From NCBI GenBank assembly GCA_049964715.1, contig JBMFXB010000001.1, positions 34,085-98,084 on the forward strand: 64,000 nucleotides of DNA, read 5' to 3'. The notes below the pieces were generated by a model. The model did not search any database. It was given only the letters and a program-made list of their open reading frames with translations, and had not been told where the DNA came from. Each line of letters opens with the position of its first letter. Position 1 is the first letter of the stretch. Source of the DNA: Candidatus Dormibacteria bacterium. Its GTDB lineage: Bacteria > Chloroflexota > Dormibacteria > Aeolococcales > Aeolococcaceae. The position numbers were made by a program, and so were the translations under genes. Shown here piece by piece: positions 1,390-17,451 of this stretch.

Positions 1390-3882
1390 CTACCCTTTAC
1401 TTCTGTCTCTCCTGCTTCGTCGAAAAAGAACAAGCATGCAAGCGAAGACCAATACTAACGCAAGTATCACCACTGCACCACTCTCAACTGGAGAATATGA
1501 CTTCTTTCTATGCAGTGGTTTTCCAGCGTGCTGATTCATGGTAAGGGCAACTGCATGAGCTGGCACAAGACGAACGATAAAAGTGTACGATACTCCATCC
1601 TTGATATAGGTTCCTGCTGCAAGACACTGGCTGGCATTCCCGCAGGTCACAGAGTCCAGAGCGTCCTCCGTCGTTGGCGACTGATTGGCCACCTTTTCCG
1701 TGATCCATGAGGACCCATTCCATGCGATCAGCACATTTCTCGAATCCTGGGTTGCCTGTGTGTTTCCTACGGCATAGCAGACATTCGTGGCTGTACAAGT
1801 CACTGAACGTAGTGTCACTGCCCCTCCGGAATCAGGCAGTCCAATCTCTGCTGTCTCAAGTGTGCTACCTGTCCAGATATCTGCTACGGGCATACTTCCC
1901 GTACCTGTTTCCCGATTTCCCACTGCCATGCATGTTAGTCTCGACAGGCAGAATACTCCGTCAAAACTCCCTGAAAATGATTGATTACCTGCAATGGGAA
2001 TACTTTGCAGAGCAGAACCATTCCACTGAATGAGCACAGGCGTATTTCTAAAACTCCCCACAGCCAGGCACGTACCAGACACTACACAGGAAATGCTCAT
2101 GAGCCTACTGGTATCAGGTGCTGCATGCACCGTCCATGAAGCACCATCCCAAATGGCTACCATCCCTGTAGCAGGATTTCCTTCATCACCGACAGCAGCA
2201 CAAAATGCCAGTGTTGTACAGCTGACTGATGACAACAATCCATTCACTCCTGAAATGCCCGATGATATCGATTGCCACTTGGTACCATTCCACTGTTCAG
2301 CAAGAACGACCTGTTTCCCTGACTGATCAGTGTGTCCAACAGCCACACAATCAGCCGAATCAATGCAACTCACACCTGAAAGCGTCCATGACATCGACCC
2401 TGGAAATCCGACGCCTGAGTAACTGTTCCACCCAGCTCCATCCCCTTGCCCCACAGAAGGATTCCCATACAGAGTATTGGTTGTAGCCTCTGTATGTCCG
2501 GTTGGGTCTGTCATGTCCCCAACAAGCATGCAAAACGCTCCACTGGTACAGGAAATCCCCCGTGCAAAATGTCCCGTACGTGGAGCTGTAAATGGAGAGG
2601 ACTGTATCTCAATGGTTCCTCCTGGTTTCCATACAACTGGAGTTGCACCAATGAACACCACGCATGATGAGGTAGGACAGGCGAGTTTCCAATCGACAGG
2701 AAGGAGTGGGACAGAACCAGGATTCACTGAAGGTTGTGAAATGTTCCACTGGGATCCATTTAAGACAGCCCCAAAAAACTGTCCCAAAGCGTAGTTCCTA
2801 CTATTTGAACTTGTTCCCCCTGCTGCAGTGCAGTAATTCACTGCTGTGCACGTCACTGCATTGAGCCACAGATCACCATGCGGGTCAAGTGATGGCGATG
2901 GAACGATTCTCCAGGAGGATCCATCCCACACTTCTGCAAGTATCCGCTGGAATCCCCCGAGAATGACTGCATACGTCCCTAGGGCAAGACAATATGTTGT
3001 CGTTACACAGGATACAGACGTTATGTCGTCACCACTTGTTGTAGTCCCTGGAGTCTGTAAAAGTGTTGTCTTCATTGTTCTGCCGGGTGTCCAGGTCAGA
3101 ATGTCATTTTCCACTCCTGAACTTGTAGAACTATCAGAAACAAGAAGCATGCACCAGTTGATTCCTGCACAAGAGGCGCTGAGCATTTCAGGTGGGTTCC
3201 TCGTTCCAAAGCCTGTACCACGTGGAAGACTGAGATTGTGTCCATTGCTCCATGATGACCCGGAAAGAATGCTGTACCACGAGGCAGTACAGTCGCCTGA
3301 ACAACCCGCTGTTTCCACTGTCGATCCAAAAGCAATGCACGAGTTGCCACTGCATGAGGCATCCTCAATAGTCTGGTAAAGGCACGATGGTCCGAAGAAT
3401 GTAGTACATGACATCCCTGAAGTACAACCTGGAACTGTACTGCACTGTGCACCTACAACTGCAACTGTATTTGGGGCTGTAGCATTCCAGTGTGTACCAT
3501 TCCACACATACGAAGCATTTCCATATGCAAGACAGTACGTTGTTGATGCACAACTCACACCATTGAATTGCGGGGAGAATGTATTCGATGCCGTGAGAGT
3601 GAGTGCTGTTGACCAGGATGAGCCATTCCAGCTGAGAAGCACTGCTTCATTGTCACCAAAGCTCCCAGCAGCTATACAGAACGATGGGCCCCCACAGCTC
3701 ACATACGGAAATGCAGCAGTTGGATACTGTGCTCCTGTTGGTCCCCACTGGAAAACCCACTGCTCTGGCGTAACTGAACGGGCATCAGCATAGCTGGCAC
3801 TAGCTGAAAACAGCAGTGCTACTACAACGACCATCATCCGAAGGTATTGAAAGTTAGGCAAACGGAAGTGCAGTACATTCAT
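1390..3882 (-). CDS. Membrane-anchored surface repeat protein. Domain order: signal peptide, then ~14 tandem ~50-aa repeats (SCxSxxxCxAVG...WNGSxW), then a C-terminal TM anchor with a basic tail
   Basis: 873-aa ORF. Probable start at MNVLHF/MMVVVVALLFSASASYADA (signal peptide). Repeats seen directly, e.g. VSCASTTYCLAYG...VWNGTHW, SCVTTTYCLALG...VWDGSSW, SCTTLAFCAAVG...IWDGASW. C-terminus ends AVVILALVLVFACMLVLFRRSRRDRSKG. Confidence 0.7.
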   Translation of the reverse strand: MNVLHFRLPNFQYLRMMVVVVALLFSASASYADARSVTPEQWVFQWGPTGAQYPTAAFPYVSCGGPSFCIAAGSFGDNEAVLLSWNGSSWSTALTLTASNTFSPQFNGVSCASTTYCLAYGNASYVWNGTHWNATAPNTVAVVGAQCSTVPGCTSGMSCTTFFGPSCLYQTIEDASCSGNSCIAFGSTVETAGCSGDCTASWYSILSGSSWSNGHNLSLPRGTGFGTRNPPEMLSASCAGINWCMLLVSDSSTSSGVENDILTWTPGRTMKTTLLQTPGTTTSGDDITSVSCVTTTYCLALGTYAVILGGFQRILAEVWDGSSWRIVPSPSLDPHGDLWLNAVTCTAVNYCTAAGGTSSNSRNYALGQFFGAVLNGSQWNISQPSVNPGSVPLLPVDWKLACPTSSCVVFIGATPVVWKPGGTIEIQSSPFTAPRTGHFARGISCTSGAFCMLVGDMTDPTGHTEATTNTLYGNPSVGQGDGAGWNSYSGVGFPGSMSWTLSGVSCIDSADCVAVGHTDQSGKQVVLAEQWNGTKWQSISSGISGVNGLLSSVSCTTLAFCAAVGDEGNPATGMVAIWDGASWTVHAAPDTSRLMSISCVVSGTCLAVGSFRNTPVLIQWNGSALQSIPIAGNQSFSGSFDGVFCLSRLTCMAVGNRETGTGSMPVADIWTGSTLETAEIGLPDSGGAVTLRSVTCTATNVCYAVGNTQATQDSRNVLIAWNGSSWITEKVANQSPTTEDALDSVTCGNASQCLAAGTYIKDGVSYTFIVRLVPAHAVALTMNQHAGKPLHRKKSYSPVESGAVVILALVLVFACMLVLFRRSRRDRSKG

Positions 3883-5168
3883 GTGACATGCTCCTTTCTG
3901 GAATACAGCCAGTACCCTCCTGCGAGCAGTACACAAACGATAATTACTGCAACAACATATGACCAACTCCATGGAGCAGGAAGCCTGATGAACTCCAGCC
4001 TTTCCCTGCACGAACTACAGGAGGAAGCAACAAAAGAGCATGTACTTGGACTTGCACACGGTTCAGAAAGAGCATCAACTTGCGGAACTGTCCTAATCGT
4101 TATGATCTTCCCTGACCCAGTATCAATTGACAGAACTTGTGCTGGATGAACCGGATATTGCACGTCTGGAATAATCACAATGCATGACCCTGAATATGGA
4201 CATGTCAGCTGTGTGTCAATCTGCATATACGAAATATTTCGAAGAACTGTCATGTTCCAAGTGGATCCTGAGATAGTGGCAATGAAGGCGTATTCCCTGT
4301 CATTGAGCCCATTCTGAAATCTTGCTTCACTTGTTCCTGCAACGATGCAAAAAGAGGCTCCTGTGCAGGAGATTCCCTGATACTGGTACTCTGCGTTCTT
4401 GCTTGCTGGCTGTGCAGGTAGAACAGTCCAGCCCGATTCTGAATGTTGTACAACCACAGCATTGCCATTAATAATTCCATGCAACGTTGCTGTATCTGCT
4501 ATGGCATTGCATTCATTATTTCCTGAACACGAAACTCCGCTAAAGCTGTATCCACTGCTCAGCTTCGGAGGCGGGAGCACACTCCACTGGCTCCCATTCC
4601 ATTCTGTAGCCACAGGTTTCGTGAAAACGGTATCCCTGAAGCCTCCCTCCGCATTACCAACGGCAAGACAGTAGCTTCGTGATGTACAACTGAGATGGTT
4701 GAGGATCACGCCAAGTCCTGCAACGTGGGTATCAATATTCTTCCTCTCCCACGCAGAACCATTCCACAGCTCTGAAAATGGTGGTTTTACTCCATTGCTT
4801 CCACCAAGAGACATGCACCAGGAGGGGGAAATGCATACCACTTGGGAAAGTCCCCACGCCCCCTGTAGGTTCTCTGATAACGGCAAGGGTCTTGGGGACC
4901 ACTGTGATCCATTCCACTGGGCTGCAACTCCGAAACTGAAATAGTCTTTATTTGTGTACGTACCAACGGCCATACAAAAGGAACGGGATGTACAGGAAAT
5001 TGCTGAGTACGTTGTTTCCCCATACTGCGTCGGAACTGGAAGGGCGCCTCCCGCAGTGGATACAACTGGTGTTGCAGATCCAATTCCTGCAGTTGCTACA
5101 GTCAACACGAAAGCTAACACAATCAGGGTGACGACAAGACCGAGAAGACGAATGGGATGACGGGTCAT
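3879..5168 (-). CDS. Paralogous membrane-anchored surface repeat protein (~7 copies of the same Cys-pair/WNGSxW repeat). N-terminal TM/signal and C-terminal TM anchor
   Basis: 429 aa. N-terminus MTRHPIRLLGLVVTLIVLAFVLTVATAG. Repeats SCTSRSFCMAVG...QWNGSQW, SCTSRSYCLAVG...EWNGSQW. C-terminus YVVAVIIVCVLLAGGYWLYSRKEHVT. Its stop overlaps the start region of the upstream paralog. Confidence 0.7.
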   Translation of the reverse strand: MTRHPIRLLGLVVTLIVLAFVLTVATAGIGSATPVVSTAGGALPVPTQYGETTYSAISCTSRSFCMAVGTYTNKDYFSFGVAAQWNGSQWSPRPLPLSENLQGAWGLSQVVCISPSWCMSLGGSNGVKPPFSELWNGSAWERKNIDTHVAGLGVILNHLSCTSRSYCLAVGNAEGGFRDTVFTKPVATEWNGSQWSVLPPPKLSSGYSFSGVSCSGNNECNAIADTATLHGIINGNAVVVQHSESGWTVLPAQPASKNAEYQYQGISCTGASFCIVAGTSEARFQNGLNDREYAFIATISGSTWNMTVLRNISYMQIDTQLTCPYSGSCIVIIPDVQYPVHPAQVLSIDTGSGKIITIRTVPQVDALSEPCASPSTCSFVASSCSSCRERLEFIRLPAPWSWSYVVAVIIVCVLLAGGYWLYSRKEHVT

Positions 5169-7575: not shown

Positions 7576-8295
7576 GTGCACCCACAGGAGACAAAGATGA
7601 CTCGGACAGCACCCAACCATTCTGTAGAGGAACTCTCGGAAAAGTCTGCAGCATTTGAACATGCTCATCCTGAAGAGATCCTTTCATGGGCAATTGGGGA
7701 GTTTGGGAATAGCATCGTTCTTGCATGTTCATTTCAGGACTGCGTTCTCATCGACATGGCAACAGCAATTGATCCTGCCATCGAGGTTGTCTTCCTCGAC
7801 ACTGGTGCACATTTCCCGGAAACACTGTCCTTCGTCGAAACAGTACGATCCCAATTCAATCTCAACCTCACTGTCACATCCCCGCCTGCTGAAGCTGCAG
7901 CGTGGACCTGCGGCACAGCCCACTGCTGTGAACTTAGAAAGGTTGAACCCCTGCGCTCTGCACTTGCAAGAAAGGCTGCATGGATCACTGCACTTAAACG
8001 ATGTGATGCCCCCACACGAACTGCTGCACCAATCTGCTCTTTTGACAATCAATTTGGTCTCGTGAAAATCAATCCGCTTGCTACATGGTCTGACGAAGAT
8101 GTAGAGGAATACCGTATCGGACACGACCTCCCAGCTCATCCACTCATCGCCAAGGGATTTCCCTCTATTGGTTGTGCACCAACCACACGACCAGTTGCCC
8201 CTGGTGAACATCCCCGTTCTGGACGGTTCTTCGGAATGGAAAAAACAGAATGCGGGCTCCATCTTCCCTCTTCAACTGCTGCATCTCAGTCGTAA
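7576..8295 (+). CDS. cysH: Adenylylsulfate (APS)/PAPS reductase, thioredoxin-dependent, with Fe-S cysteine pairs (CysH)
   Basis: PAPS-reductase fold (ILACSFQDCVLIDMA, VVFLDTGAHFPET). Cys pairs CC...ECGLH are typical of the [4Fe-4S] APS reductase type. Transcribed divergently from cysDN. Confidence 0.8.
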   Translation: MHPQETKMTRTAPNHSVEELSEKSAAFEHAHPEEILSWAIGEFGNSIVLACSFQDCVLIDMATAIDPAIEVVFLDTGAHFPETLSFVETVRSQFNLNLTVTSPPAEAAAWTCGTAHCCELRKVEPLRSALARKAAWITALKRCDAPTRTAAPICSFDNQFGLVKINPLATWSDEDVEEYRIGHDLPAHPLIAKGFPSIGCAPTTRPVAPGEHPRSGRFFGMEKTECGLHLPSSTAASQS

Positions 8296-8493
8296 GCAAC
8301 AATCCCCACGCTTCGCCTCCACCATCACGACTGCACCCGCACCTGTACAACGATAGCCTCCCTTGGGATGACAACTATCAGTGGGAAACCTGCTACTGGC
8401 AATTTTTCTTCCCAGCAGGTACAATGGTTCAAGGAGTCATATAGGTAGATCGACATACGGTCTCCTGTCTTACTCGCAAGAGAGGGGAATGGG

Positions 8494-9462
8494 GTGATTC
8501 GTATTCCATGGGTGCATGGGCATAAGTTACAGTCCGATGTAGATTCATCGTGGTATCAAGCGATGACGTCTGGACATGCGGATGATGTTGCGCCTGCAGC
8601 ACACAGCGCCTGGGGACCGGAGTATTGGCCACAGGAAGTGCGCGACAATCTCACAAGCTGGCCACCAACATTCAAGGAACGACAGATCATAGATGCTGTC
8701 CGTACACCGTGGAGTGGACCAGTTGTCCTTTCTGTAATGGGACGAAAGCATGGCGTGGGGAAAAGTACGATTGCACGTCTTCTGCAGCAGATATATGCCC
8801 TCCACCGCAATGACACAATCGTGCTCGTTCGACAACAAGGATTGAAGGAAAGCAGTGTTGTTCCAAGTGAAGAAACGCTTGTACAAGTAAGCGGTACACC
8901 TGCTACTCAACTTTCTTTTCCTTCAAATCCTGCAATGCGACCATCCCCGAACATGACACCTGAAGTGGACCTCATGCCCGGTACAAAACTCGCCTTTGCG
9001 GATGCTCCTGCTGATCCTTCCCGGATCCGTGAACTTCTTGCACATCTCAAAAGGCAGTACTCACTCGTCATCTGCGACATTGAGGACACGACGAATGACG
9101 ATGCTGTCTTTGCATACCTTTCTCAAAGCACACAGATTATCATGGTCGCAACTCCAAGTATTGATGGGGTGTATGCAGCCTCATCTACGCTTGACTGGCT
9201 TCGTGAACAAGGATTTCGTGAACTCAGTGATCAGGCAATAGTCTGCATTAACCAGATCCGAACAATACCTTTCAGCACACTTGTTTCCATAACGCGATAC
9301 TTCCAGCAGCATCGACGCACTGTTGTGCGTGTAGTCTGGGACAGGGCAATTGCACATGATGTCCACGTTCCAGATCTTGATGCTCTCCTGCCCTCAACAA
9401 GGACAGGTCTCCATGAGCTTGCAGCTGCTGTCGCACTTCAAAGTTGTTATTCGCATGCATAA
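8494..9462 (+). CDS. ParA/MinD/CpaE-family P-loop ATPase with ~75-aa N-terminal extension (deviant Walker A: GRKHGVGKST). First gene of the VirB4-centred cluster
   Basis: GTG start preceded by GAGAGGGG. Walker A VLSVMGRKHGVGKSTIARLL. Walker B-like SLVICDIEDTT. MinD-like C-terminal region IMVATPSIDGVYAA. Confidence 0.6.
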   Translation: MIRIPWVHGHKLQSDVDSSWYQAMTSGHADDVAPAAHSAWGPEYWPQEVRDNLTSWPPTFKERQIIDAVRTPWSGPVVLSVMGRKHGVGKSTIARLLQQIYALHRNDTIVLVRQQGLKESSVVPSEETLVQVSGTPATQLSFPSNPAMRPSPNMTPEVDLMPGTKLAFADAPADPSRIRELLAHLKRQYSLVICDIEDTTNDDAVFAYLSQSTQIIMVATPSIDGVYAASSTLDWLREQGFRELSDQAIVCINQIRTIPFSTLVSITRYFQQHRRTVVRVVWDRAIAHDVHVPDLDALLPSTRTGLHELAAAVALQSCYSHA

Positions 9463-9512
9463 TCAGGTATTACATAAGGATAGTGTTTTGTCTCGACAAG
9501 GAGGACGGGAAC

Positions 9513-9803
9513 ATGTGGGTATTGGGTGATGTGAGCTGGACACCAAATCCCAGCGCTTTGCCAGGTTTCGGAACACTGCAGGCTATTACCGATGCAGTTG
9601 GTGCCTATGCACTACTCGGATGCCTGATTGCAATTATTGGTGGTGGGGTCGCCTGGGCAGCTGGATCAAGTTCAGCAAATGCACAGGTCGCAGCAATGGG
9701 CAAGAAGACCGTTGCAGGAGCTATCATTGGAGCACTCATCATTGGTGCATCCTCGATCCTGATCAACTTCTTCTACCATACAGGCCAGACGCTGCAATCC
9801 TGA
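9513..9803 (+). CDS. Small two-TM membrane protein, pilin-like (VirB2/TrbC-like or PrgI/VirB3-like) component
   Basis: ATG at 9513 with AAGGAGGA 7 nt upstream. 96 aa with two hydrophobic helices (AVGAYALLGCLIAIIGGGVAWAA and VAGAIIGALIIGASSILINFF) separated by a short Ser/Ala loop. Position is between the ATPase and the VirB6-like gene. Confidence 0.5.
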   Translation: MWVLGDVSWTPNPSALPGFGTLQAITDAVGAYALLGCLIAIIGGGVAWAAGSSSANAQVAAMGKKTVAGAIIGALIIGASSILINFFYHTGQTLQS

Positions 9804-9838
9804 TCAACTTCTTCTACCATACAGGCCAGACGCTGCAC
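9757..9838 (+). repeat. Perfect 2 x 41-bp tandem direct repeat (tcctgatcaacttcttctaccatacaggccagacgctgca[a/c]) spanning the 3' end and stop codon of the pilin-like gene
   Basis: Copies at 9757-9797 and 9798-9838 differ only at the last base. The gene stop TGA (9801-9803) lies inside copy 2. The alternate-frame ORF 9620..9841 ends with the same peptide (ILINFFYHTGQTLH). Confidence 0.9.
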
Positions 9839-9859
9839 TAAGCCGATTTTGTAGTTGCA

Positions 9860-9893
9860 CGGGCTCCCGAATCCGGGGAGAGACGGGAGTCCG
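9860..9893 (+). promoter_or_regulatory. GC-rich stem-loop (cgggctccc...gggagtccg) in the pilin/VirB6 intergenic region. Possible attenuator or mRNA-processing hairpin
   Basis: Inverted repeat with 8 of 9 positions complementary, plus an inner ctccc/gggag stem. Located 57 nt after the pilin-like stop and ~60 nt before the GTG of the next gene. Confidence 0.35.
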
Positions 9894-9955
9894 TACCGCG
9901 TCGTTGACCTACGTTCGAGGGGTGACGAACACGTAGGAGAGAGCAGGGGGAATCA

Positions 9956-11419
9956 GTGGTGAGATTCGTTCGCTACGTCCAAGGGGCGTACGTACGCATT
10001 GCGTTTGCAATCCTTACACTCGTATGCTGCATGTCGTTCTTTTCCGGCTCAGTAGCAGCAGCGACAGTTGATCACGCCCCGACACCCATTGTTGCATCAA
10101 GTATTTTTGACACGTGTCAGATACCGGTCATTTCCCAGGCATGCAAGACTGCCTCAAGTGCATCAAGTACACTATCAAATCCAGCTGACTCTCTTGCAAG
10201 CTCCGTCGCATCATCTGTCCTAAATGCCATCGATTCCTGGGTAACGAATGCTGCAGTCTGGATCCTTGACAAGATTGTTGCACTCATCAACTCTTCAACT
10301 ACACCTAATCTCTCTGCCCCATGGTTCATGCAGCACTACAGCGTCATGGTGACTCTTGGAGCACTCGTAATGCTGCCGCTTCTCCTTCTAACTGCACTCC
10401 TCGGTGCAATCAAGGGAGATCCGTCACTTCCGCTCCGTGCTGCGTTTGTCTACGTTCCAGTTGCTTGTATTGGCACCTTTGTGTCGCTTCATGTCGTTGA
10501 TGCACTCCTGAAAATTGTGGACTGGATGTGCAGCGTTGTCCTCACAGGCATGAACTCAGATTATTCATCTTTTGTCTCAAACATCAGTACTGCACTCAAT
10601 GGGGGAAATACCCCATCCATAGCGACTCCTTTTATTGCACTCATATCAAGCTTCCTCATTGTCGTTTTTGGCTTTTTCATCTTCATCGAACTTCTCGTTC
10701 GTGAAGCAACAATTTATGCAACTGCCATCTTCATACCTCTTATCCTCACGACACTCGTATTTCCACAGGCATCTCGTATGGCAACGAAAATGTTTGAAAC
10801 ACTCATCTTCGTCATCATTTCAAAATTTGTCCTTGTTGTTGTCCTGTCAATTGGTATTGCTGCGCTCGGGGGCGGAACTACAGGAGGGTTCGCTGCTGTT
10901 CTTGCTGGTGTAGTCATAGTTATCATGACTGCCTTTACCCCAGCTGCAATCCTTGCCCTCGTTCCAACCATTGAAGGTTCAATCTCGACATTTGTCACTG
11001 CACAGACTATTGGCATTGGGGAGGGACTTGTTGCTGCAACGACAGGTGCAAATGTATACAGTGGCATACGGCGGTTCAATGAGGCTCGCATTGCCTCAAG
11101 CTCCGTCACGAGTGCCTCTGCTGGAGCAGCTGGCGGGGCTGCAGGAGGTGCTGCTGGTGCTGTTCATCTCATCGGCAGCCGTGCTGCTCAATCTGGTCAA
11201 AGTTTCCAACAAGGAGCAACCCAACACCAGCCAAACACGTCTGGTGGTGTGGGAAATTCCCAAACTCAAGGAGGTCCGACTGGCTGGCGAGGAGCCCAGC
11301 AACAGTCACCTCAACCCAGAACTACGATCGTTCCCAGTGAAACCCGAGGGGGGACAGGTCCATCGTCGAATGGTCCGTCAGTTCCACCCACTTCGGAAGG
11401 AGGTATGAGTGATGTCTGA
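9956..11419 (+). CDS. VirB6/TrbL-like polytopic inner-membrane protein. Domain order: signal peptide, periplasmic N-domain, ~6 TM helices, Gly/Ala/Gln-rich C-terminal tail
   Basis: GTG start with GGGGG RBS. Signal MSFFSGSVAAA. TM helices such as YSVMVTLGALVMLPLLLLTALLGAI and IATPFIALISSFLIVVFGFFIFIELLV. Low-complexity tail AGAAGGAAGGAAGA...QQGATQHQPNTSGG, typical of the TrbL/VirB6 architecture. Confidence 0.55.
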   Translation: MVRFVRYVQGAYVRIAFAILTLVCCMSFFSGSVAAATVDHAPTPIVASSIFDTCQIPVISQACKTASSASSTLSNPADSLASSVASSVLNAIDSWVTNAAVWILDKIVALINSSTTPNLSAPWFMQHYSVMVTLGALVMLPLLLLTALLGAIKGDPSLPLRAAFVYVPVACIGTFVSLHVVDALLKIVDWMCSVVLTGMNSDYSSFVSNISTALNGGNTPSIATPFIALISSFLIVVFGFFIFIELLVREATIYATAIFIPLILTTLVFPQASRMATKMFETLIFVIISKFVLVVVLSIGIAALGGGTTGGFAAVLAGVVIVIMTAFTPAAILALVPTIEGSISTFVTAQTIGIGEGLVAATTGANVYSGIRRFNEARIASSSVTSASAGAAGGAAGGAAGAVHLIGSRAAQSGQSFQQGATQHQPNTSGGVGNSQTQGGPTGWRGAQQQSPQPRTTIVPSETRGGTGPSSNGPSVPPTSEGGMSDV

Positions 11420-12896
11420 TGATCTTCGGTACCGTTTTGGTCCGCTGGAGCAGCGTGGATTTCTTTTTGGACTCCGAACTGCACAAGTCGGTCTCCTCTT
11501 TGGTGGTGCATTTCTCGGCGTCATTGCCATGCATGCACTGCCCGGAAGCGGTGGCATTGCTCTCGCCATGCTTTTTCTCACAGTAGCTGCTGGTTCATGC
11601 TTCTGGCATGTGAGCGGGAGAAGTGTTGACCAGTGGGTACCTGTTGGTATGCGCTGGCTCGTACGCAAGCTCAAAAGAGAGAATATCCATGTATCCCAAG
11701 CACCACTCCAGGGCCACAGCTGGAAGACACCCCTCATTCCAAAGGATGCACCTCCAAGCCTGAAATCCATCTCCATCATTGCTGCACCCGTAGCAGGCGG
11801 TGAACTTGGTGTGGTGAAAGATGCACTGTCCGGTACATACACTGCAGTTCTTGCAGTCCGTGGCCGCTCCTTTGCACTTCTTGACCAACAGGACAAGGCA
11901 CGACTTCTTTCCCAGTGGGGAGATGTCCTTACAGGACTTGCCCGAGAGGGAAGTCCCATCACACGACTCCAGTGGCTTGAACGAACCTCTGCTGACAGTG
12001 GAGAGACTGTTGCACAGTATCTCCGGGAATCCGTGAAAGGAGACTACACGTCCCCCGCTGTACGAAGCTACCTTCAGCTCATTGAAGAAGCAGGACCAGT
12101 TGCACGCCGTCATGAAACGTACCTTTCTGTGCAAATTGATGGACTCCGTGCACGACGTGCCATTCGACAGTCTGGTGGTGGCGATACTGGAGCATGCCTC
12201 GTACTAGCTAGAGAGATTTATGGCCTTGCCACACGATTACAGGCAGCAGATCTCGATGTTCTCGGCCTACTTACTCCACAGGTACTTGCTGAAACCATTC
12301 GCACTGCCTATGACCCTGCTGCAAAGAATGGGCTCGCCATGAAAAGTGTGATGTACCCAGATGAGATGGGTGTCAATCCTGCCCATGCATGGCCCATGAA
12401 GACAGTGAGTCACTGGGATCATCTCGCTTCTGACAGTGCTGTCCACGCAACGTATTGGTGTGCAGAGTGGCCCCGCACTGATGTCGGTCCCGATTTCCTT
12501 GCACCACTCCTCCTGCAAACTTGGGTGCATCGTACAGTCTCTGTAACGATGGAACCAGTCTCACCGCTGAAGGCCCAACGTGAAGTGGAGACTGCCCGTA
12601 CTGCAGACATTGCTGATGCAGAAGTACGTCAGAAGCACGGATTTATAACCACCATGCGGCGTCAACGCCAGCATGAGGGTGTACTTCGTCGTGAACTGGA
12701 GCTTGCGGATGGACATGCTGACATTCGATTCAGTGGCTACATCACAGTCACTGCTCAAAACCAGGAAGAGCTTGAAGTAGCCTGCAGCGAAGTCGAGCAA
12801 CAAGCTGGACAGTCCCGAATCGTACTCCGACGCCTCTCTGGTGAACATGACGTTGCCTTCACATATACCCTGCCTCTTGCACGAGGGCTCCGATGA
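11409..12896 (+). CDS. N-terminal half of a VirB3-VirB4-like protein: two N-terminal TM helices plus a soluble domain. Translationally coupled to the downstream ATPase half
   Basis: GTG/ATG start overlaps the upstream stop (GAAGGAGG RBS). TM1 VGLLFGGAFLGVIAMHAL and TM2 IALAMLFLTVAAGSCFW. ATGA overlap with the next ORF at 12893-12896. The size (495 aa) plus the next ORF (438 aa) approximates a fused VirB3/VirB4. Confidence 0.5.
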   Translation: MMSDDLRYRFGPLEQRGFLFGLRTAQVGLLFGGAFLGVIAMHALPGSGGIALAMLFLTVAAGSCFWHVSGRSVDQWVPVGMRWLVRKLKRENIHVSQAPLQGHSWKTPLIPKDAPPSLKSISIIAAPVAGGELGVVKDALSGTYTAVLAVRGRSFALLDQQDKARLLSQWGDVLTGLAREGSPITRLQWLERTSADSGETVAQYLRESVKGDYTSPAVRSYLQLIEEAGPVARRHETYLSVQIDGLRARRAIRQSGGGDTGACLVLAREIYGLATRLQAADLDVLGLLTPQVLAETIRTAYDPAAKNGLAMKSVMYPDEMGVNPAHAWPMKTVSHWDHLASDSAVHATYWCAEWPRTDVGPDFLAPLLLQTWVHRTVSVTMEPVSPLKAQREVETARTADIADAEVRQKHGFITTMRRQRQHEGVLRRELELADGHADIRFSGYITVTAQNQEELEVACSEVEQQAGQSRIVLRRLSGEHDVAFTYTLPLARGLR

Positions 12897-14209
12897 ACAC
12901 CCGCTCACACCAACTCGCACATCGCGTAACGACAGCACACTTCCAGGCTGTGTACCCCTTTATCTCTGAGGGAGGACTTGGCGGTCGTGGTTGCTACATC
13001 GGACAAGACCTGTTTGGTGGAGCATTCTGCTATGACCCCTGGGAACTGTATGGACGACACTTGAGTGGTCCAAACATGCTTGTCATTGGTCAGATAGGGT
13101 TCGGGAAGTCATCATTCGTAAAGAGCTATATCTACCGGCAGCTAATCTTTGGGCGTCGGGCTGTCATGCTCGATCCAAAGGGAGAGAATGGAGCACTTTG
13201 CGCTGCTGTTGGAGTTGACCCCCTCAAGCTCCGACCTGGCGGTGAAATCCGCCTCAACCCGCTTGACCCAGAAGTCGGCGATCCAAACAGGCCAGTCGAG
13301 CAGATCACCCAGGATCAGCTCGGTGTCCTGCTTGCCATCATTGCAGCAGCCCTCAATCGTCCGCTCACCCCGGAAGAGCGTGCAGCGTGCGGAGTCGCGC
13401 TCGACAGTGCAAGACAAAACCATGTGGGACAACCCACCCTTCCACATGTAGTCGAAGCACTGCTCTTCCCGGACGATGAGGCTGCTTCAAAGCTGGCAAC
13501 AACGAAGGAACGCCTTGCCACTGGCTCACGCGAAGCTTCCCTTGAGCTTCAACGACTCTGTCAGGGCGACCTCAGGGGTATGTTCGATGGTCCCACATCA
13601 GGGAATATCGATCTCACTTCCCCTCTTGTCTCTTTCGACCTGAGTTCTGTCTACCAGTCTGAGGCACTTGGCATTCTTATGGTATGCGCAGCCGCATGGC
13701 TCCAGCGAGCACTTGCACGTCAGGAGACAACAAAGCGTATCCTCGTTCTCGATGAGGCATGGGTTTGTCTGAGGAATGTCGCCATAGCCAGGTGGCTCCA
13801 GGCATCGTACAAGCTTGCTCGTGCCTATGGAGTGCAGAATATTGCCGTTGTGCATCGCCTCAGCGACCTCTCTGCAGCAGGAGCAGGTGACAGTGAACAA
13901 GTCCAGCTCGCTCGAGGGCTTCTTTCAGACTCGGAAACTCGCGTGATCTACTATCAGGCTCCTGGAGATGTTGCTGTATCAAAGGGCCTTCTGGGGCTCA
14001 CGGACAGTGAAGCAGATCTCATCTCACAACTGCGACGCGGCCAATCACTATGGAAGGTTGGCACAAGAGGATTCCTTGTGCAGCATCGACTGAGCAAGTT
14101 CGAACGAAATATCGTCGATACGGACTTCAGGATGATCGACCTGCCTGGCATGCCAGGTGAAATTGGATCCCCAGCTCATCCGGCAATCCCTCCTGCTGAA
14201 TCTGCATAG
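12893..14209 (+). CDS. VirB4/TraC/TrbE-family ATPase, C-terminal NTPase domain
   Basis: Walker A NMLVIGQIGFGKSSFVKS. VMLDPKGE motif. Walker B ILVLDEAWVCL. VVHRLSDL motif. All match VirB4-type T4SS ATPases. Confidence 0.75.
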   Translation: MNTRSHQLAHRVTTAHFQAVYPFISEGGLGGRGCYIGQDLFGGAFCYDPWELYGRHLSGPNMLVIGQIGFGKSSFVKSYIYRQLIFGRRAVMLDPKGENGALCAAVGVDPLKLRPGGEIRLNPLDPEVGDPNRPVEQITQDQLGVLLAIIAAALNRPLTPEERAACGVALDSARQNHVGQPTLPHVVEALLFPDDEAASKLATTKERLATGSREASLELQRLCQGDLRGMFDGPTSGNIDLTSPLVSFDLSSVYQSEALGILMVCAAAWLQRALARQETTKRILVLDEAWVCLRNVAIARWLQASYKLARAYGVQNIAVVHRLSDLSAAGAGDSEQVQLARGLLSDSETRVIYYQAPGDVAVSKGLLGLTDSEADLISQLRRGQSLWKVGTRGFLVQHRLSKFERNIVDTDFRMIDLPGMPGEIGSPAHPAIPPAESA

Positions 14210-14393
14210 CACAAGGCGTCCTGTCCATACGCCCAAAAAGGTGGATGATGCACATCTGCTCTCATCCAGGGAGCACAGCTCCAACGCCTCCTTCCCCCAA
14301 GTAAGGAGGACCTAATTCGTGTCCAGGTAATTCCTAGGACGCGAGAGAACAACTGTTATGACAAAGCTGAGTTGACGCTGCAGCTTTTTGTAT

Positions 14394-15596
14394 CTACGGA
14401 TCCATTCTTGTCTCTGAAGGTTGCACTGTACCCATGAGCGTTCGGGGCAGTGCAAGTGCAGGAACGACAGCTGCACAGCTTAGAGCTGCAAGCACCCAAA
14501 ATACGGACATGACATCAGAATCGTTTACAAGAAAGCCAATTACCAGAACAAGAAGTGCACCAAGACCATTTGCAAGTCCAAGTGCAATTCCTGAACCCAT
14601 GGACCTGTTTTCTGGGAAGATATCCTGCCCGATGAGGATTGTTGTCGATGCAGTGAGAAAAAGCAATGGCCCTAGGAGTGCAGCAAGAACCCAGATCCAC
14701 GCACCGTGCGCATACGCAATGGGCACGACAAGAAGTGCTATTGCAAGTGTGGATACTACAAGTACAGGACGTCTTCCAAACACATCAGCCAGATGTCCTC
14801 CAAAGAGATTTCCGACTACTCCCACGACAATAATCGTCGAGATGATTGTGGCCCCACTTACAAGACTTCCTCCATGAAGATGCCAGAGAATCGGAATAAA
14901 AGTCACCAGACCGTAGATAGTGAATGCTCGAATCGAGCTATAACTCAGGAGAAGAAGGAGTGGCCTGCTGTGTGCCTGGAAGTGAAGTACACGTCCTGAC
15001 CGTGGACGGGCGGGGAGTTGTGGTGCAAGACGGAAGACAACAATCACTGTAAGAAGTCCAGGTATGGCAATAATCCATAAATACTGAAGCCCAAGATTGG
15101 CAGCAACGAGACTTGCTGCTGTTGGCCAGATGCCTCGACCAATTTCTCCTCCGACAAGAAACAGGGATGTGAAAAGTCCATGCCTCCCCTGGAGCATGCT
15201 CCGTACTCCTGCGAGAGCTTGGGGATGAAAGAGAGCACTCCCAATCCCAATCATGAGAAGAATGACAATAAGAAGACCCAGACTGTTTGTGACACCAAGG
15301 AGACCCCCTCCCAGGGAGCTGAGGAGAAGTCCCAAGGCAACGAACCATCGTCCTCCAACACCATCAGCAATCCATCCCAGAAACGGCTGGAGAGCCTGTC
15401 CAATCATGAGGGCAGCCATAAGTACGCCTGCCATATGTACGTTTCCGTGCACTGCAACGAGAACTGCAGGGAGCACTCCTGGAAGGTAGTTCGATGCACC
15501 ATCATTGAGGAGATGTGCCCAGGTAAGTGCAAGAAGCCGAGTTCGCAGACGAACTTCTCCTCGAGCTGTATCTTCCCGTGTCACTGGATCAGTCAC
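14394..15596 (-). CDS. MFS transporter (12-TM)
   Basis: 400 aa, highly hydrophobic with a two-fold repeat. N-terminal LALTWAHLLNDGASNYLPG and MFS-like loop motifs. Confidence 0.8.
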   Translation of the reverse strand: MTDPVTREDTARGEVRLRTRLLALTWAHLLNDGASNYLPGVLPAVLVAVHGNVHMAGVLMAALMIGQALQPFLGWIADGVGGRWFVALGLLLSSLGGGLLGVTNSLGLLIVILLMIGIGSALFHPQALAGVRSMLQGRHGLFTSLFLVGGEIGRGIWPTAASLVAANLGLQYLWIIAIPGLLTVIVVFRLAPQLPARPRSGRVLHFQAHSRPLLLLLSYSSIRAFTIYGLVTFIPILWHLHGGSLVSGATIISTIIVVGVVGNLFGGHLADVFGRRPVLVVSTLAIALLVVPIAYAHGAWIWVLAALLGPLLFLTASTTILIGQDIFPENRSMGSGIALGLANGLGALLVLVIGFLVNDSDVMSVFWVLAALSCAAVVPALALPRTLMGTVQPSETRMDP

Positions 15597-15666: not shown

Positions 15667-17451
15667 CTAAGGATGTTCGTGTACAACTGGCTTCGAAGAT
15701 TCATCGAACTTTTTGGCACACCCTTCACAACAGAAGTAATAGGTCTGACCATCGCGGACTCTTGCAGAAGTGGTTACATTTGGCAATACTGTCATGCCGC
15801 AAATGGGATCCTTCGCCTCAGCAGGAAATGACTCTTGAGATTTCGGATGCTTTGCATCGAATGTCACTGCACACCCTTCACAGCAGAAGTAATACGTTGT
15901 TCCTTCAAACTCCCGCGTCGGGGTCGAGGAATCTGGTGTTACTGTCATCGAACATATGGGATCCACAGCGGACGGTGGGAGGTCAATCATGTCATTCTCC
16001 TTGGTGTGTACAGTTTCCGGGTCGTGCTGTGCATCAAAAATAGCTGCACAGTGTTCGCTGCAAAAATAGTAGGTAATGCCCCCGAGTTCACGTGTAGGCG
16101 GATTCGTGGAGGGATCAACAGACATTCCACAAATGGGATCTATTTCTGCTGCTGACATGTATTCCGGGGATGACACATTCCCGGCAGCAGTTCTCCCTTC
16201 CAGGAATCGATCCTTGCAGCCGTCACTGCAGAAATACCACGTCGTCCCGTCCACGGATGCTTGAGCAGGAGCAAGAGCTCGTTCAACCTGCATTCCGCAG
16301 ATGGGATCCCGGGCATACTTGTTTTCGGAAGCCCACTCCCTTTTTCGTGAAAGCCAAAATACTGTGCCCAAAACAGCACATCCAACAATGTTGAGAAGTG
16401 CTGTACCCACTCCTGGTGAAGCAATAGATGTAGCGAGATAGTGGGAGCTCGGAACGAGATGAACTGCACTGAAGATGAGGTCAGTCGCAAGTCCAGCAAG
16501 TGACATCGTCACCCACAGGAGAGCCACAATCCGCAGGGCAACTCTCCATCCGTACATCCTGCGATACGCAAGGATGAGTGGGAATGCAATGAGGTCTGCA
16601 AAGATGAAGCTCAGGACACCTCCAAAACTTATCCCGCCTACCCACAAAGCAGCTGCAAGCGGCACATTGCCTACAGAGCAGACGAAACTTAGCACTGCAA
16701 TTGCAGGACCTACAATAACATTCTCCAGTAGAGTGACAAAACCATGACCATGAATAAAGGCTGCATTCCAGACTGCATGCGGGACATTTGCCATGATGAG
16801 ACCTGCCACGACAAAGCCAATGAGGAGTTCTCTCCAAAGCATCGTGAGATCTGCAATCGTGTATGTTGCAGCATCAACCCATTTCCGTCGGTCTCGAACG
16901 GATAGGGAAGAAGACGTTACCGAGGGAAGATCGACATGCACTCGGGCATCCTGCTCACGAAGTCGTGCCTGCGTTGCATCAACTGCCCTTCCTCGAAGAA
17001 ACACTACTCCCAGAAGCGCAATGATGACGATCATGATTGCACTACCAACGTACTCACCCAGCAGGAACTGCCATCCCATGAGAATGAGGAGCACAAGGCC
17101 AAGCTCCAGAACAAGGTTCGTTGATGCAACCATGAACTCTATTGCAGCTATCATATCCGCACCACGTGCAATGAGTGCTCGTGTCATGGCTGAAGCTGCA
17201 TATGAGCAGGATGACGAGATCATGCCAAAAAACGATGCTCGAACTGTTGCGCCTGCTCCGTGATTCCCGAGCATGCGCTCCATTGTATGTCGACTGACAA
17301 ACGACTGGACTACTCCCGAAAGGGTAAATCCCAGAATGAGCACCCAGCCAGTTGCCCAAATCATCTCAACGGTATCCAGAAGACCCCGAACGATCCCCGC
17401 ACCGATTCCATCAATGATTGACCACATACCTAGGAGTCCTCTCTGCCACAT
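15667..17451 (-). CDS. Predicted permease (YraQ/DUF318-like polytopic membrane domain) fused to four tandem C-terminal YHS/TRASH metal-binding domains
   Basis: N-terminal ~400 aa is polytopic membrane with GMISSSCSY and CSVGNVPLAAAL motifs. The C-terminus repeats DPICGM(S)xV...Y(Y)FC(S/C)E(G)C...F four times (ICGMQVE, ICGMSVD, ICSMTVT, ICGMTVL). Confidence 0.75.
   Translation of the reverse strand: MWQRGLLGMWSIIDGIGAGIVRGLLDTVEMIWATGWVLILGFTLSGVVQSFVSRHTMERMLGNHGAGATVRASFFGMISSSCSYAASAMTRALIARGADMIAAIEFMVASTNLVLELGLVLLILMGWQFLLGEYVGSAIMIVIIALLGVVFLRGRAVDATQARLREQDARVHVDLPSVTSSSLSVRDRRKWVDAATYTIADLTMLWRELLIGFVVAGLIMANVPHAVWNAAFIHGHGFVTLLENVIVGPAIAVLSFVCSVGNVPLAAALWVGGISFGGVLSFIFADLIAFPLILAYRRMYGWRVALRIVALLWVTMSLAGLATDLIFSAVHLVPSSHYLATSIASPGVGTALLNIVGCAVLGTVFWLSRKREWASENKYARDPICGMQVERALAPAQASVDGTTWYFCSDGCKDRFLEGRTAAGNVSSPEYMSAAEIDPICGMSVDPSTNPPTRELGGITYYFCSEHCAAIFDAQHDPETVHTKENDMIDLPPSAVDPICSMTVTPDSSTPTREFEGTTYYFCCEGCAVTFDAKHPKSQESFPAEAKDPICGMTVLPNVTTSARVRDGQTYYFCCEGCAKKFDESSKPVVHEHP

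Follow-up and report, generated by a model that had tools for sequence, protein, structure and literature searches.

Results

Two overlapping genes at the locus

In a 64,000-nucleotide (nt) stretch of Candidatus Dormibacteria DNA (assembly GCA_049964715.1, contig JBMFXB010000001.1, positions 34,085 to 98,084; hereafter, the window), two adjacent genes resemble the two halves of VirB4, the ATPase that is the hallmark of type IV secretion systems (T4SSs). All features lie on the forward strand unless stated otherwise. In the open reading frame (ORF) listing, ORF A occupies positions 11409–12896, begins with GTG and encodes 495 amino acids (aa), with an ATG at 11412 that is as good a start; ORF B occupies positions 12893–14209, begins with ATG and encodes 438 aa, and the two lengths sum to 933 aa. 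The genes meet in an ATGA stop/start overlap (12893–12896) that places ORF B in the -1 frame relative to ORF A. The junction reads ...CGAGGGCTCCGATGAACACC..., in which the ATG at 12893–12895 overlaps the TGA of ORF A at 12894–12896; in the junction sequence ...CTTGCACGAGGGCTCCGATGAACACC... three bases are common to the start of ORF B and the stop of ORF A. This ATG is the earliest start codon past the preceding in-frame stop in frame B, and homology of ORF B to its orthologs starts at residue 1–5.

A Shine-Dalgarno (SD)-like GAGGG (12883–12887) precedes the start of ORF B by 5 nt and is formed by conserved Arg-Gly codons of ORF A. Both sequence marks of a coupled gene pair, a stop/start overlap and an SD-like motif inside the upstream gene, were therefore found at this junction. 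ORF A in turn overlaps the gene before it, which encodes a VirB6-like membrane protein, by 8 nt (from ATG 11412) or 11 nt (from GTG 11409), and a strong Shine-Dalgarno sequence for ORF A, GGAAGGAGG, can be read at 11395–11403 within the 3' end of that upstream gene. Because of this second overlap and the ribosome-binding site inside the upstream gene, the VirB6-like gene, ORF A and ORF B would constitute a tightly packed, translationally linked string. A preliminary description, made from the sequence of the window, had reported the two ORFs with their coordinates, the ATGA overlap and a total of about 930 aa, and re-reading of the sequence bore it out in every detail; the transmembrane (TM) helices that it placed in ORF A and the Walker A and B motifs of the NTPase domain that it placed in ORF B were both located as well.

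ORF A resembles the N-terminal domain of VirB4

ORF A (11409–12896) was identified as a SCO6880-family protein. The NCBIfam model NF042935 ('SCO6880 family protein') is matched over profile positions 3–476 of 477 with 345.4 bits, which covers the model end to end and exceeds its cut-off of 60 bits, and the Pfam family PF11203 (EccE) is matched at residues 232–350 with 33.3 bits (gathering threshold, GA, 23.7). Residues 295–491 also align to positions 171–362 of the VirB4 model CD1110, weakly (E 1.5e-3); the N-terminal part of the same model is matched by 26 of 32 SCO6880-family members. Two TM helices (11478–11603; residues 24–43 and 47–65 in Kyte-Doolittle windows of at least 1.6) form a VirB3-like or EccE-like hairpin, and they reappear as helices 24–43 and 47–64 in an AlphaFold2 (AF2) model of ORF A, which was built with 32 homologs and reached a predicted local distance difference test score (pLDDT) of 80.4 and a predicted template modelling score (pTM) of 0.79.

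The hairpin is followed by a cytoplasmic domain (11616–12893) that ends in an LPLxRGLR motif. When the ORF A model was compared with the Protein Data Bank (PDB) by Foldseek, the top 14 matches were all chains of TrwK, the VirB4 of R388 (E 2e-11 to 2e-8), and the alignment spans about 410 columns; the predicted fold of ORF A is that of the VirB4 N-terminal domain (NTD) of TrwK. Phmmer and profile searches of ORF A against PDB sequences returned no VirB4 or EccE chain, and the relation to proteobacterial TrwK is therefore visible only at the level of the fold. The assignment of ORF A as the NTD subunit of a split VirB4 accordingly draws mainly on the predicted structure and on the family-level matches. 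The preliminary description would have been contradicted by an ORF A unlike VirB4 N-terminal domains, and the predicted TrwK-type fold points the other way.

ORF B resembles the VirB4 C-terminal ATPase

ORF B (12893–14209) matches VirB4 models in their C-terminal half only, namely CD1110 at positions 411–729 of 752 (76.4 bits) and TraC at positions 386–710 of 800. Residues 30–404 align to residues 7–383 of PDB 4ag5, the C-terminal domain (CTD) of the Thermoanaerobacter pseudethanolicus VirB4 (E 1.8e-19), and the Pfam families AAA_10 and P-loop_TraG are present. The Walker A (GQIGFGKS, 13088–13111) and Walker B (ILVLDE, 13739–13756) motifs were read directly from the sequence. Hydropathy analysis revealed zero hydrophobic helices, and ORF B was classified as a CmdB-like, RecA-like VirB4 C-terminal ATPase subunit that has no TM segment. 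In three related loci (L012:1979-3381, L038:8775-10111 and L013:9536-10934), the gene corresponding to ORF B is interrupted just past the P-loop, at about residue 77; the interruption in L012 is 1401 nt long (467 codons) and in frame. They have the appearance of an intein that contains a homing endonuclease and sits in the Walker A region.

The break coincides with the domain boundary of VirB4

The two proteins were concatenated in silico and compared with full-length VirB4 models by HMMER, and a single unbroken alignment across residue 495|496 was obtained for five of them. Residues 296–886 align to positions 172–729 of CD1110, with 100.6 bits against 76.4 for ORF B alone; residues 392–829 align to positions 271–691 of TraC-F, residues 434–622 to positions 401–583 of Mbov_0397, and residues 440–596 to positions 348–504 of TcpF, and PRK13721 is the fifth model aligned over the junction. 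A moderately confident structure model of the concatenated protein, used for collinearity only and not for the A–B interface, aligns to full-length TrwK over 830–870 columns (E 2e-18). Because the joined sequence aligns continuously to VirB4 models and to TrwK, the break between the two ORFs is placed by these alignments inside a canonical VirB4, at the NTD/CTD boundary. This agrees with the expectation in the preliminary description that the junction would map to the linker between the domains: five models are crossed, ORF B corresponds to the 4ag5 CTD construct, and ORF A is predicted to have the TrwK NTD fold.

The split is conserved across genomes

An exhaustive profile search of 1.84 billion representatives yielded 3,330 clusters at 50% identity, 1,084 of them at E <=1e-30. 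Single-domain length was found in 149 of the best 150 of the 3,330 matched 50%-identity representatives, and the best 120 ORF A homologs (45–94% identity) measure 488–504 aa except for two, of 448 and 548 aa. Genomic loci were then compared in a sample of 80 species-level loci, comprising Dormibacterota-type metagenome-assembled genomes (MAGs), Gaiellales, Solirubrobacterales, Acidimicrobiales, Nitriliruptorales and others; junctions were counted in 79 loci, the window included, in which ORF A is complete and ORF B identifiable. No A–B fusion was found among these 79 orthologous loci. The preliminary description had named a single continuous ORF in orthologs as the observation that would overturn it; this state is absent from 79/79 loci and was encountered only in a small, divergent Acidimicrobiia clade (below).

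A 4-nt NTGA overlap is present in 59 of the 79 loci (29 ATGA, 29 GTGA and 1 TTGA), and in 55 of these 59 a G-rich SD-like motif encoded by the conserved Arg-Gly codons lies at -15 to -5. The C-terminal motif of ORF A (LPLxRGLR) is kept in 74/79 loci; its wider form is LPLxRGL[RKATS], directly after which ORF A always ends. An NTGA tetranucleotide alone is not improbable by chance; the overlap goes beyond chance because it is kept in 59/79 loci, with frame B opening exactly there. The preliminary description had taken the ATGA as typical of translational coupling rather than of a random frameshift, and these counts side with it, while the coupling itself is suggested by the sequence. Small gaps separate the two genes in 8 loci, and in the remaining 12 they lie 350–5600 nt apart with unrelated ORFs between them. 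Since inserted genes separate ORF A from ORF B in these 12 loci, the two proteins appear able to work as independent polypeptides. Taken together, these comparisons indicate that the split is ancient and that it represents the normal state of the family, in thousands of genomes of Actinomycetota and Dormibacterota.

In some lineages the A|B junction is a hotspot for insertions, with both genes intact on either side. One locus (L011:4072-4956) carries a 294-aa HNH-type homing-endonuclease ORF between the two genes, with two HNH-like motifs (LDHLCRNPACVNPEHLEP), and a remnant of the same type of ORF is present at the junction of another (L007:5593-5919). A PIN-like ORF with a small partner ORF occupies this position in L040:6018-6751, and 5-kb cargo insertions were observed in L009:8440-13877 and L027:8430-14040. 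Complete A-B-VirD4 modules were also present in a Gemmatimonadales-labelled MAG (L055) and a Dehalococcoidia-labelled MAG (L076), and both nest among Solirubrobacterales and Thermoleophilia sequences in the ORF A tree; this placement could reflect horizontal transfer or a binning error.

A natural fusion of ORF A and ORF B

The lone fused-length entry among the best 150 representatives, P0158 (928 aa), is an in-frame fusion of A and B whose joint coincides exactly with the junction (...LPLGRGLG-DRRLAHRP...), and its DNA corresponds to the NTGA minus one nucleotide. A search with P0158 returned four more full-length fusions (921–947 aa, 65–81% identical) from different samples, one of them from an NCBI Acidimicrobiia MAG, and two N-truncated fragments with the same junction. 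Because five full-length and two fragmentary proteins share the junction, the fusion is considered real and inherited in one small clade. In a crude neighbour-joining tree of A domains, the fused clade lies beside the split loci L044 and L061; the tree was midpoint-rooted, and its untrustworthy rooting leaves re-fusion and ancestral retention undecided. The existence of natural fusions shows that the two proteins are one functional unit, and that a 1-nt insertion or deletion (indel) interconverts the two states, without the pair in the window thereby being a broken gene.

Both genes are under purifying selection

An exact-sequence look-up of the ORF A protein of the window returned no record, and an ortholog with 94% amino acid identity (P0001; locus L082, NCBI label Candidatus Dormibacteria) was used instead. 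This ortholog is found on 7 contigs from 3 samples. The identical 4-nt overlap is present in L082 and L083, and the chromosomal neighbours of the L082 cluster are as in the window. Between the window and L082, the ratio of nonsynonymous to synonymous substitution rates (dN/dS) is 0.023 for ORF A, 0.032 for ORF B and 0.034 for the VirB6-like gene, at a dS of 1.1–1.7, where synonymous sites are near saturation. All five genes of the cluster to which the pair belongs are intact, with dN/dS of 0.02–0.15 at dS >1. Amino acid identity is 92–95% for the T4SS-like core genes, 79% for cysH and 75% for the ParA-like gene. In the DNA alignment with the ortholog, it is third codon positions that take the substitutions, those of frame A up to the NTGA and those of frame B beyond it. 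These data demonstrate strong purifying selection on both ORF A and ORF B. When the window was compared with L001, a second Dormibacterota-type locus, ORF B was 82% identical and ORF A only 58%, which indicates a far slower pace of evolution for the motor subunit than for the anchor subunit.

The preliminary description had left two alternatives standing, a genuine two-subunit VirB4 and a very recent frameshift. A frameshift, with pseudogenisation under way, would have broken a single-chain VirB4 in this genome, and the -1 frame of ORF B and the 1-nt step that separates the fused clade from the split loci are compatible with such an event. However, the stop occupies the same position in 79/79 loci from several Actinomycetota classes and Dormibacterota, ORF A fits the 477-position curated family model end to end, both genes evolve at dN/dS of 0.02–0.03 with saturated dS, and the third-position substitutions change frame exactly at the NTGA. 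A recent frameshift is thus refuted and retains a negligible probability, and the genuine two-subunit VirB4 is retained with high confidence. An artificial 1-nt indel made by sequencing or assembly error is a generic possibility for metagenome-derived sequence, with nothing specific to recommend it here. It is excluded because the seven independent ortholog contigs from three samples carry the identical overlap, which dozens of unrelated assemblies share, and its probability is equally negligible; the assembly-error check proposed in the preliminary description is answered by these independent assemblies.

Programmed -1 ribosomal frameshifting could additionally yield a full-length fused VirB4 from the split genes, and the frame of ORF B, the G-rich run ahead of the stop in many loci and the viability of the fused form in one clade are in keeping with this. 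No canonical slippery heptamer was found in the window sequence GGGCTCCGATGA, however, and since the two genes are hundreds to thousands of nt apart in 12 loci and separated by small gaps in 8, a fused product is not required. For lack of a slippery site, and in view of the loci with ORF A and ORF B far apart, programmed frameshifting was rejected as very improbable.

Relation of ORF A to the type VII secretion protein EccE

EccE of type VII secretion systems (PF11203, TIGR03923; PDB 6SGZ chain D, 7B9F chain E) has, like ORF A, two N-terminal TM helices and a cytoplasmic domain, and JGI and some GenBank records name SCO6880-family proteins EccE. The model TIGR03923 (T7SS_EccE) is matched by 21 of the 32 family members (best E 2.3e-13), over model positions 3–335 of 344 and protein residues ~24–423, a span that takes in the TM hairpin and most of the NTD-like domain; these members reach at most 49.8 bits, against a cut-off of 108 bits. 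ORF A of the window itself did not match TIGR03923 at E <=0.1. In Foldseek, ORF A matched EccE3 (6sgz_D) and EccE5 with a probability of 0.96–1.0 (1.0 for EccE3), with E-values much weaker than for TrwK, whose match is nine orders of magnitude better.

One reading of these matches is that ORF A is simply the EccE of a type VII system and that its adjacency to a VirB4-like ATPase is incidental. This reading draws on the Pfam EccE match above the gathering threshold, on the nearly full-length TIGR03923 alignments of the family and on the structural match to EccE3. ESX genes were sought around the pair, and no EccB, EccC, EccD, MycP or WXG100 context is present; the neighbours are instead ParA-like, DUF6112, VirB6-like, VirB4-CTD and housekeeping genes, and in the family ORF A is syntenic with VirB6-like, pilin-like, VirB4-CTD and usually VirD4 genes. 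EccE is moreover shorter than ORF A, is encoded in ESX loci and is partnered by the FtsK-like EccC rather than by a VirB4 CTD. Because the family does not reach the equivalog cut-off for EccE and no ESX context is present, ORF A is not regarded as an EccE; the superior TrwK match and the natural A–B fusions argue in the same direction, and the incidental-adjacency explanation was judged to be highly unlikely. EccE and the free-standing VirB4 N-subunit nevertheless appear to be homologous, a relationship that is well supported by the profile and predicted-structure matches, with the direction of descent being conjecture. It was tentatively conjectured, at somewhat short of even odds, that a free-standing SCO6880 protein was the evolutionary source of EccE, with ESX systems recruiting the N-subunit of a split T4SS, and that the VirD4-less Dormibacteria cluster is a domesticated, non-conjugative machine with the same two-subunit motor. 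For CoCoNuT loci, a 2024 paper describes an 'EccE3-like domain fused to a VirB4-like ATPase', without tying EccE to the VirB4 NTD.

The gene cluster lacks VirD4 and is chromosomal

The pair closes a five-gene cluster. The first gene (8494–9462) encodes a ParA/MinD/CpaE-like P-loop ATPase with weak NCBIfam matches to CpaE_hom_Actino, ParA and MinD and a ParA-like PHROG match; it is 31% identical (E 2e-23) to the CbiA/ParA gene heading the cluster of Salsipaludibacter, and a ParA-like ATPase stands at the same position in at least 14 loci. The second gene (9444–9803) encodes a small, T4SS pilin-like membrane protein (Pfam DUF6112, 26.0 bits, GA 25; weak T4SS_pilin), probably with its true start near 9516 (95 aa, as called for the L082 ortholog), and its position is kept in most loci. 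The third gene (9956–11419) encodes a polytopic VirB6/TrbL-like membrane protein of 487 aa, which has zero matches in Pfam and PHROGs. Its identity follows from synteny and from pairwise homology to a gene that PGAP annotates as 'type IV secretion system protein' and that occupies the corresponding position on an Iamia plasmid (BLASTP E 2e-16), and its L085 ortholog has a precomputed TrbL_3 match. The DUF6112 and VirB6-like genes are syntenic with A-B in about 70 loci, and the gene order (ParA/CpaE-like ATPase)-DUF6112-VirB6-like-A-B is kept in essentially all loci.

VirD4 follows ORF B in 60/80 loci. The cluster of the isolate Salsipaludibacter albus also contains a lytic transglycosylase (SLT) gene and a DUF8175 gene. 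The Iamia sp. plasmid NZ_CP050950, the one plasmid inspected, has the identical order of AAA/ParA ATPase, DUF6112, (DUF8175), VirB6-like, SCO6880 and ATP-binding protein, with proteins 39–44% identical to those of the window; it extends to VirD4 and, ~5.7 kb further on and on the opposite strand, to a MobF relaxase, whereas the window cluster stops at ORF B, between housekeeping genes. The family is also present on 220 PLSDB plasmids from Streptomyces, Arthrobacter, Rhodococcus and others. The VirD4 of most relatives, the MobF of the Iamia plasmid and these 220 actinobacterial plasmids together indicate that the ancestral context was a conjugative T4SS. No homolog of VirD4, MobF, SLT, M23 or DUF8175 was found in the 64-kb window. 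On one side the cluster borders cysN/cysD/cysH; the genes on its other side encode a major facilitator superfamily (MFS) transporter, an ArsP-YHS permease and nucleoside phosphorylases. No tRNA lies within 8 kb of the cluster. In L001, no VirD4 occurs in the 4.3 kb downstream of ORF B; ORF B is followed there by genes for an HRDC protein, a peptidase of family M23 and a receiver-ParA protein, with a gene for pyrimidine-nucleoside phosphorylase close by.

These observations bear on whether the cluster is what remains of a decaying integrated conjugative element (ICE) after the loss of VirD4 and its relaxase. Its plasmid and ICE relatives carry VirD4, the plasmid inspected carries MobF, and the window is devoid of VirD4, relaxase, hydrolase and DUF8175, all of which a remnant would explain. 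Decay is hard to reconcile, however, with five intact genes at dN/dS of 0.02–0.15 and dS >1, with ORF A, ORF B and the VirB6-like gene being more conserved than cysH, with the same chromosomal context in a second species, with the L001 locus, likewise VirD4-less over the 4.3 kb downstream of ORF B, and with borders that have no integrase or tRNA. An ICE remnant was therefore considered very unlikely. The very low dN/dS, the chromosomal context and the lack of VirD4 instead favor a functional, chromosomal, VirD4-independent variant. An ICE boundary was likewise sought and rejected, there being no tRNA, integrase or relaxase nearby, and a promoter and terminator scan of positions 8200–14500 gave sites no more numerous than in shuffled controls and thus no indication of operon boundaries.

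Other genes of the window were recorded as well. Two ORFs on the reverse strand (1390–4011 and 3879–5168; 873 and 429 aa) have zero Pfam or PHROG matches, and their L082 versions measure 832 and 430 aa. The ArsP-type permease (15667–17451, reverse strand, 594 aa) is fused to four YHS/TRASH metal-binding repeats and adjoins the cluster in L082 too. In L082, two extra genes (L082:12797-13848, reverse strand; 151 and 199 aa, no Pfam match) lie between ORF B and the MFS transporter and are not in the window, which points to a local indel at the 3' border of the cluster.

Discussion

ORF A and ORF B are, with good confidence, the two subunits of a naturally split VirB4, and the cluster around them is most likely a domesticated, VirD4-independent, T4SS-like machine, because VirD4, a relaxase and a cell-wall hydrolase are absent from the window. 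In this split VirB4, ORF A would supply the two-helix membrane anchor and the VirB4 NTD, and ORF B the soluble, RecA-like C-terminal motor with its intact Walker A and B motifs. Matched amounts of the two proteins may be ensured by termination-reinitiation at the ATGA, aided by the SD-like GAGGG, and the subunits would then come together at the membrane by non-covalent contacts, joined by the VirB6-like channel protein and the pilin-like DUF6112 protein. In most relatives, on actinobacterial plasmids and ICEs, the module is followed by VirD4, presumably for conjugation. In the window, the five-gene cluster would work independently of VirD4, and by analogy its candidate outputs are a surface structure, secretion or DNA uptake. 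VirD4-less T4SSs include Bordetella Ptl and Helicobacter ComB, which serve protein export or DNA uptake.

Several points weigh against this interpretation. The similarity of ORF A to VirB4 NTDs is weak at the sequence level alone (E 1.5e-3), and the family profile search of PDB sequences returned no VirB4 chain. The VirB4 hidden Markov model (HMM) scores, at best 100.6 bits for the joined sequence, are far under the curated cut-offs for the VirB4 family (643 bits for TIGR00929, 325 for NF045971 and 567 for TIGR02746), and the interdomain geometry of the concatenated AF2 model is of low confidence (pLDDT 67, pTM 0.55). The 12 loci in which the genes are far apart mean that coupling is not obligatory. 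We infer both A–B binding and translational coupling from sequences and structure models, the function suggested for the VirD4-less cluster is by analogy only, and a VirD4 could be encoded elsewhere in the genome, beyond the 64 kb.

Joined end to end, ORF A and ORF B have the two-domain architecture and the Walker A/B-bearing CTD of canonical VirB4/TrwK/TraC/TrbE/CagE proteins (R388 TrwK, PDB 7O43/8RTD; 4AG5), which carry NTD and CTD on one ~800-aa polypeptide, whereas two polypeptides are used here. T4SS genes are the neighbours of canonical VirB4 genes, and here the neighbours are VirB6-like and pilin-like genes, plus VirD4 in relatives. The window system also differs from canonical VirB4 in that ORF A brings its own two-helix membrane anchor and in that VirD4 is lacking. 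In canonical T4SSs, the NTD of VirB4 docks the ATPase onto the inner-membrane complex. VirB3-VirB4 fusion proteins occur in some T4SSs, and these are similar to the joined pair in their length of ~930 aa and in a TM segment N-terminal to the VirB4 NTD; however, such fusions join two genes, while here the opposite boundary, NTD|CTD, is open, and any homology of the hairpin to VirB3 is conjectural.

The closest described parallel is found in Streptomyces coelicolor, in the cmdABCDEF operon (SCO4126-4131) and the SCO6871-6884 cluster (Xie et al. 2009, PMC2782261). CmdB is VirB4-like and without a TM segment, yet it fractionates with the membrane, and SCO6878, SCO6880 and SCO6881 resemble CmdB, CmdC and CmdD (PMC2782261). 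The chromosomal cmd operon has a standalone VirB4-like ATPase of ~430 aa (CmdB/SCO6878), a SCO6880-like CmdC and a polytopic CmdD, and the gene content of the window matches this description; none of the six cmd genes is described as encoding a coupling protein, and the window is likewise without VirD4. Deletion of the cmd operon alters sporulation and chromosome segregation but not plasmid transfer, and the cmd phenotype also involves actinorhodin (PMC2782261). The operon differs from the window cluster in phylum and in having six genes rather than five; the two are likened by description, and the phenotype is not transferable to Dormibacteria. CmdC/SCO6880 was not recognised as the N-terminal half of a VirB4 in that work (PMC2782261).

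In terms of sequence families, nothing sets the locus apart: it belongs to a large and already catalogued family pair, SCO6880 plus 'ATP-binding protein'. What seems undescribed so far is that the pair represents a VirB4 divided between its two domains, with a coupling overlap that is conserved, that one nucleotide toggles the split to a fusion, and that the N-subunit is a homolog of EccE. The phrase 'split VirB4' and similar phrases were not found in the open-access literature, where 'SCO6880' is scarcely mentioned, and an earlier description elsewhere is possible; a 2025 review of T4SS nomenclature includes no split VirB4 and no such actinobacterial system. The composition of T4SSs in Actinobacteria was stated to be wholly unknown by Guglielmini et al. 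in 2014. The local twist is the VirD4-less, strongly constrained chromosomal version in Dormibacteria.

The finding is of moderate significance, gene fission and fusion being common in evolution. VirB4 serves as a phylogenetic marker for the classification of conjugation systems and is, to our knowledge, the sole universal T4SS protein. Detectors and annotators based on HMMs see a short 'ATP-binding protein' and a 'SCO6880 family' or 'EccE' protein at such loci, and with VirB4 present as two genes, the T4SSs of actinobacteria and Dormibacterota would therefore be under-called or mislabelled as type VII parts. The split is also a natural experiment that separates the role of the VirB4 N-domain in membrane docking from that of the C-domain as the motor, and the 1-nt toggle between split and fused states can be engineered. 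Homology between the N-subunit and EccE provides a testable link between the architectures of T4SSs and ESX/type VII systems. Finally, the VirD4-less version in Dormibacteria, like cmd in Streptomyces, points to possible roles of this machinery outside conjugation in soil phyla that have been little studied.

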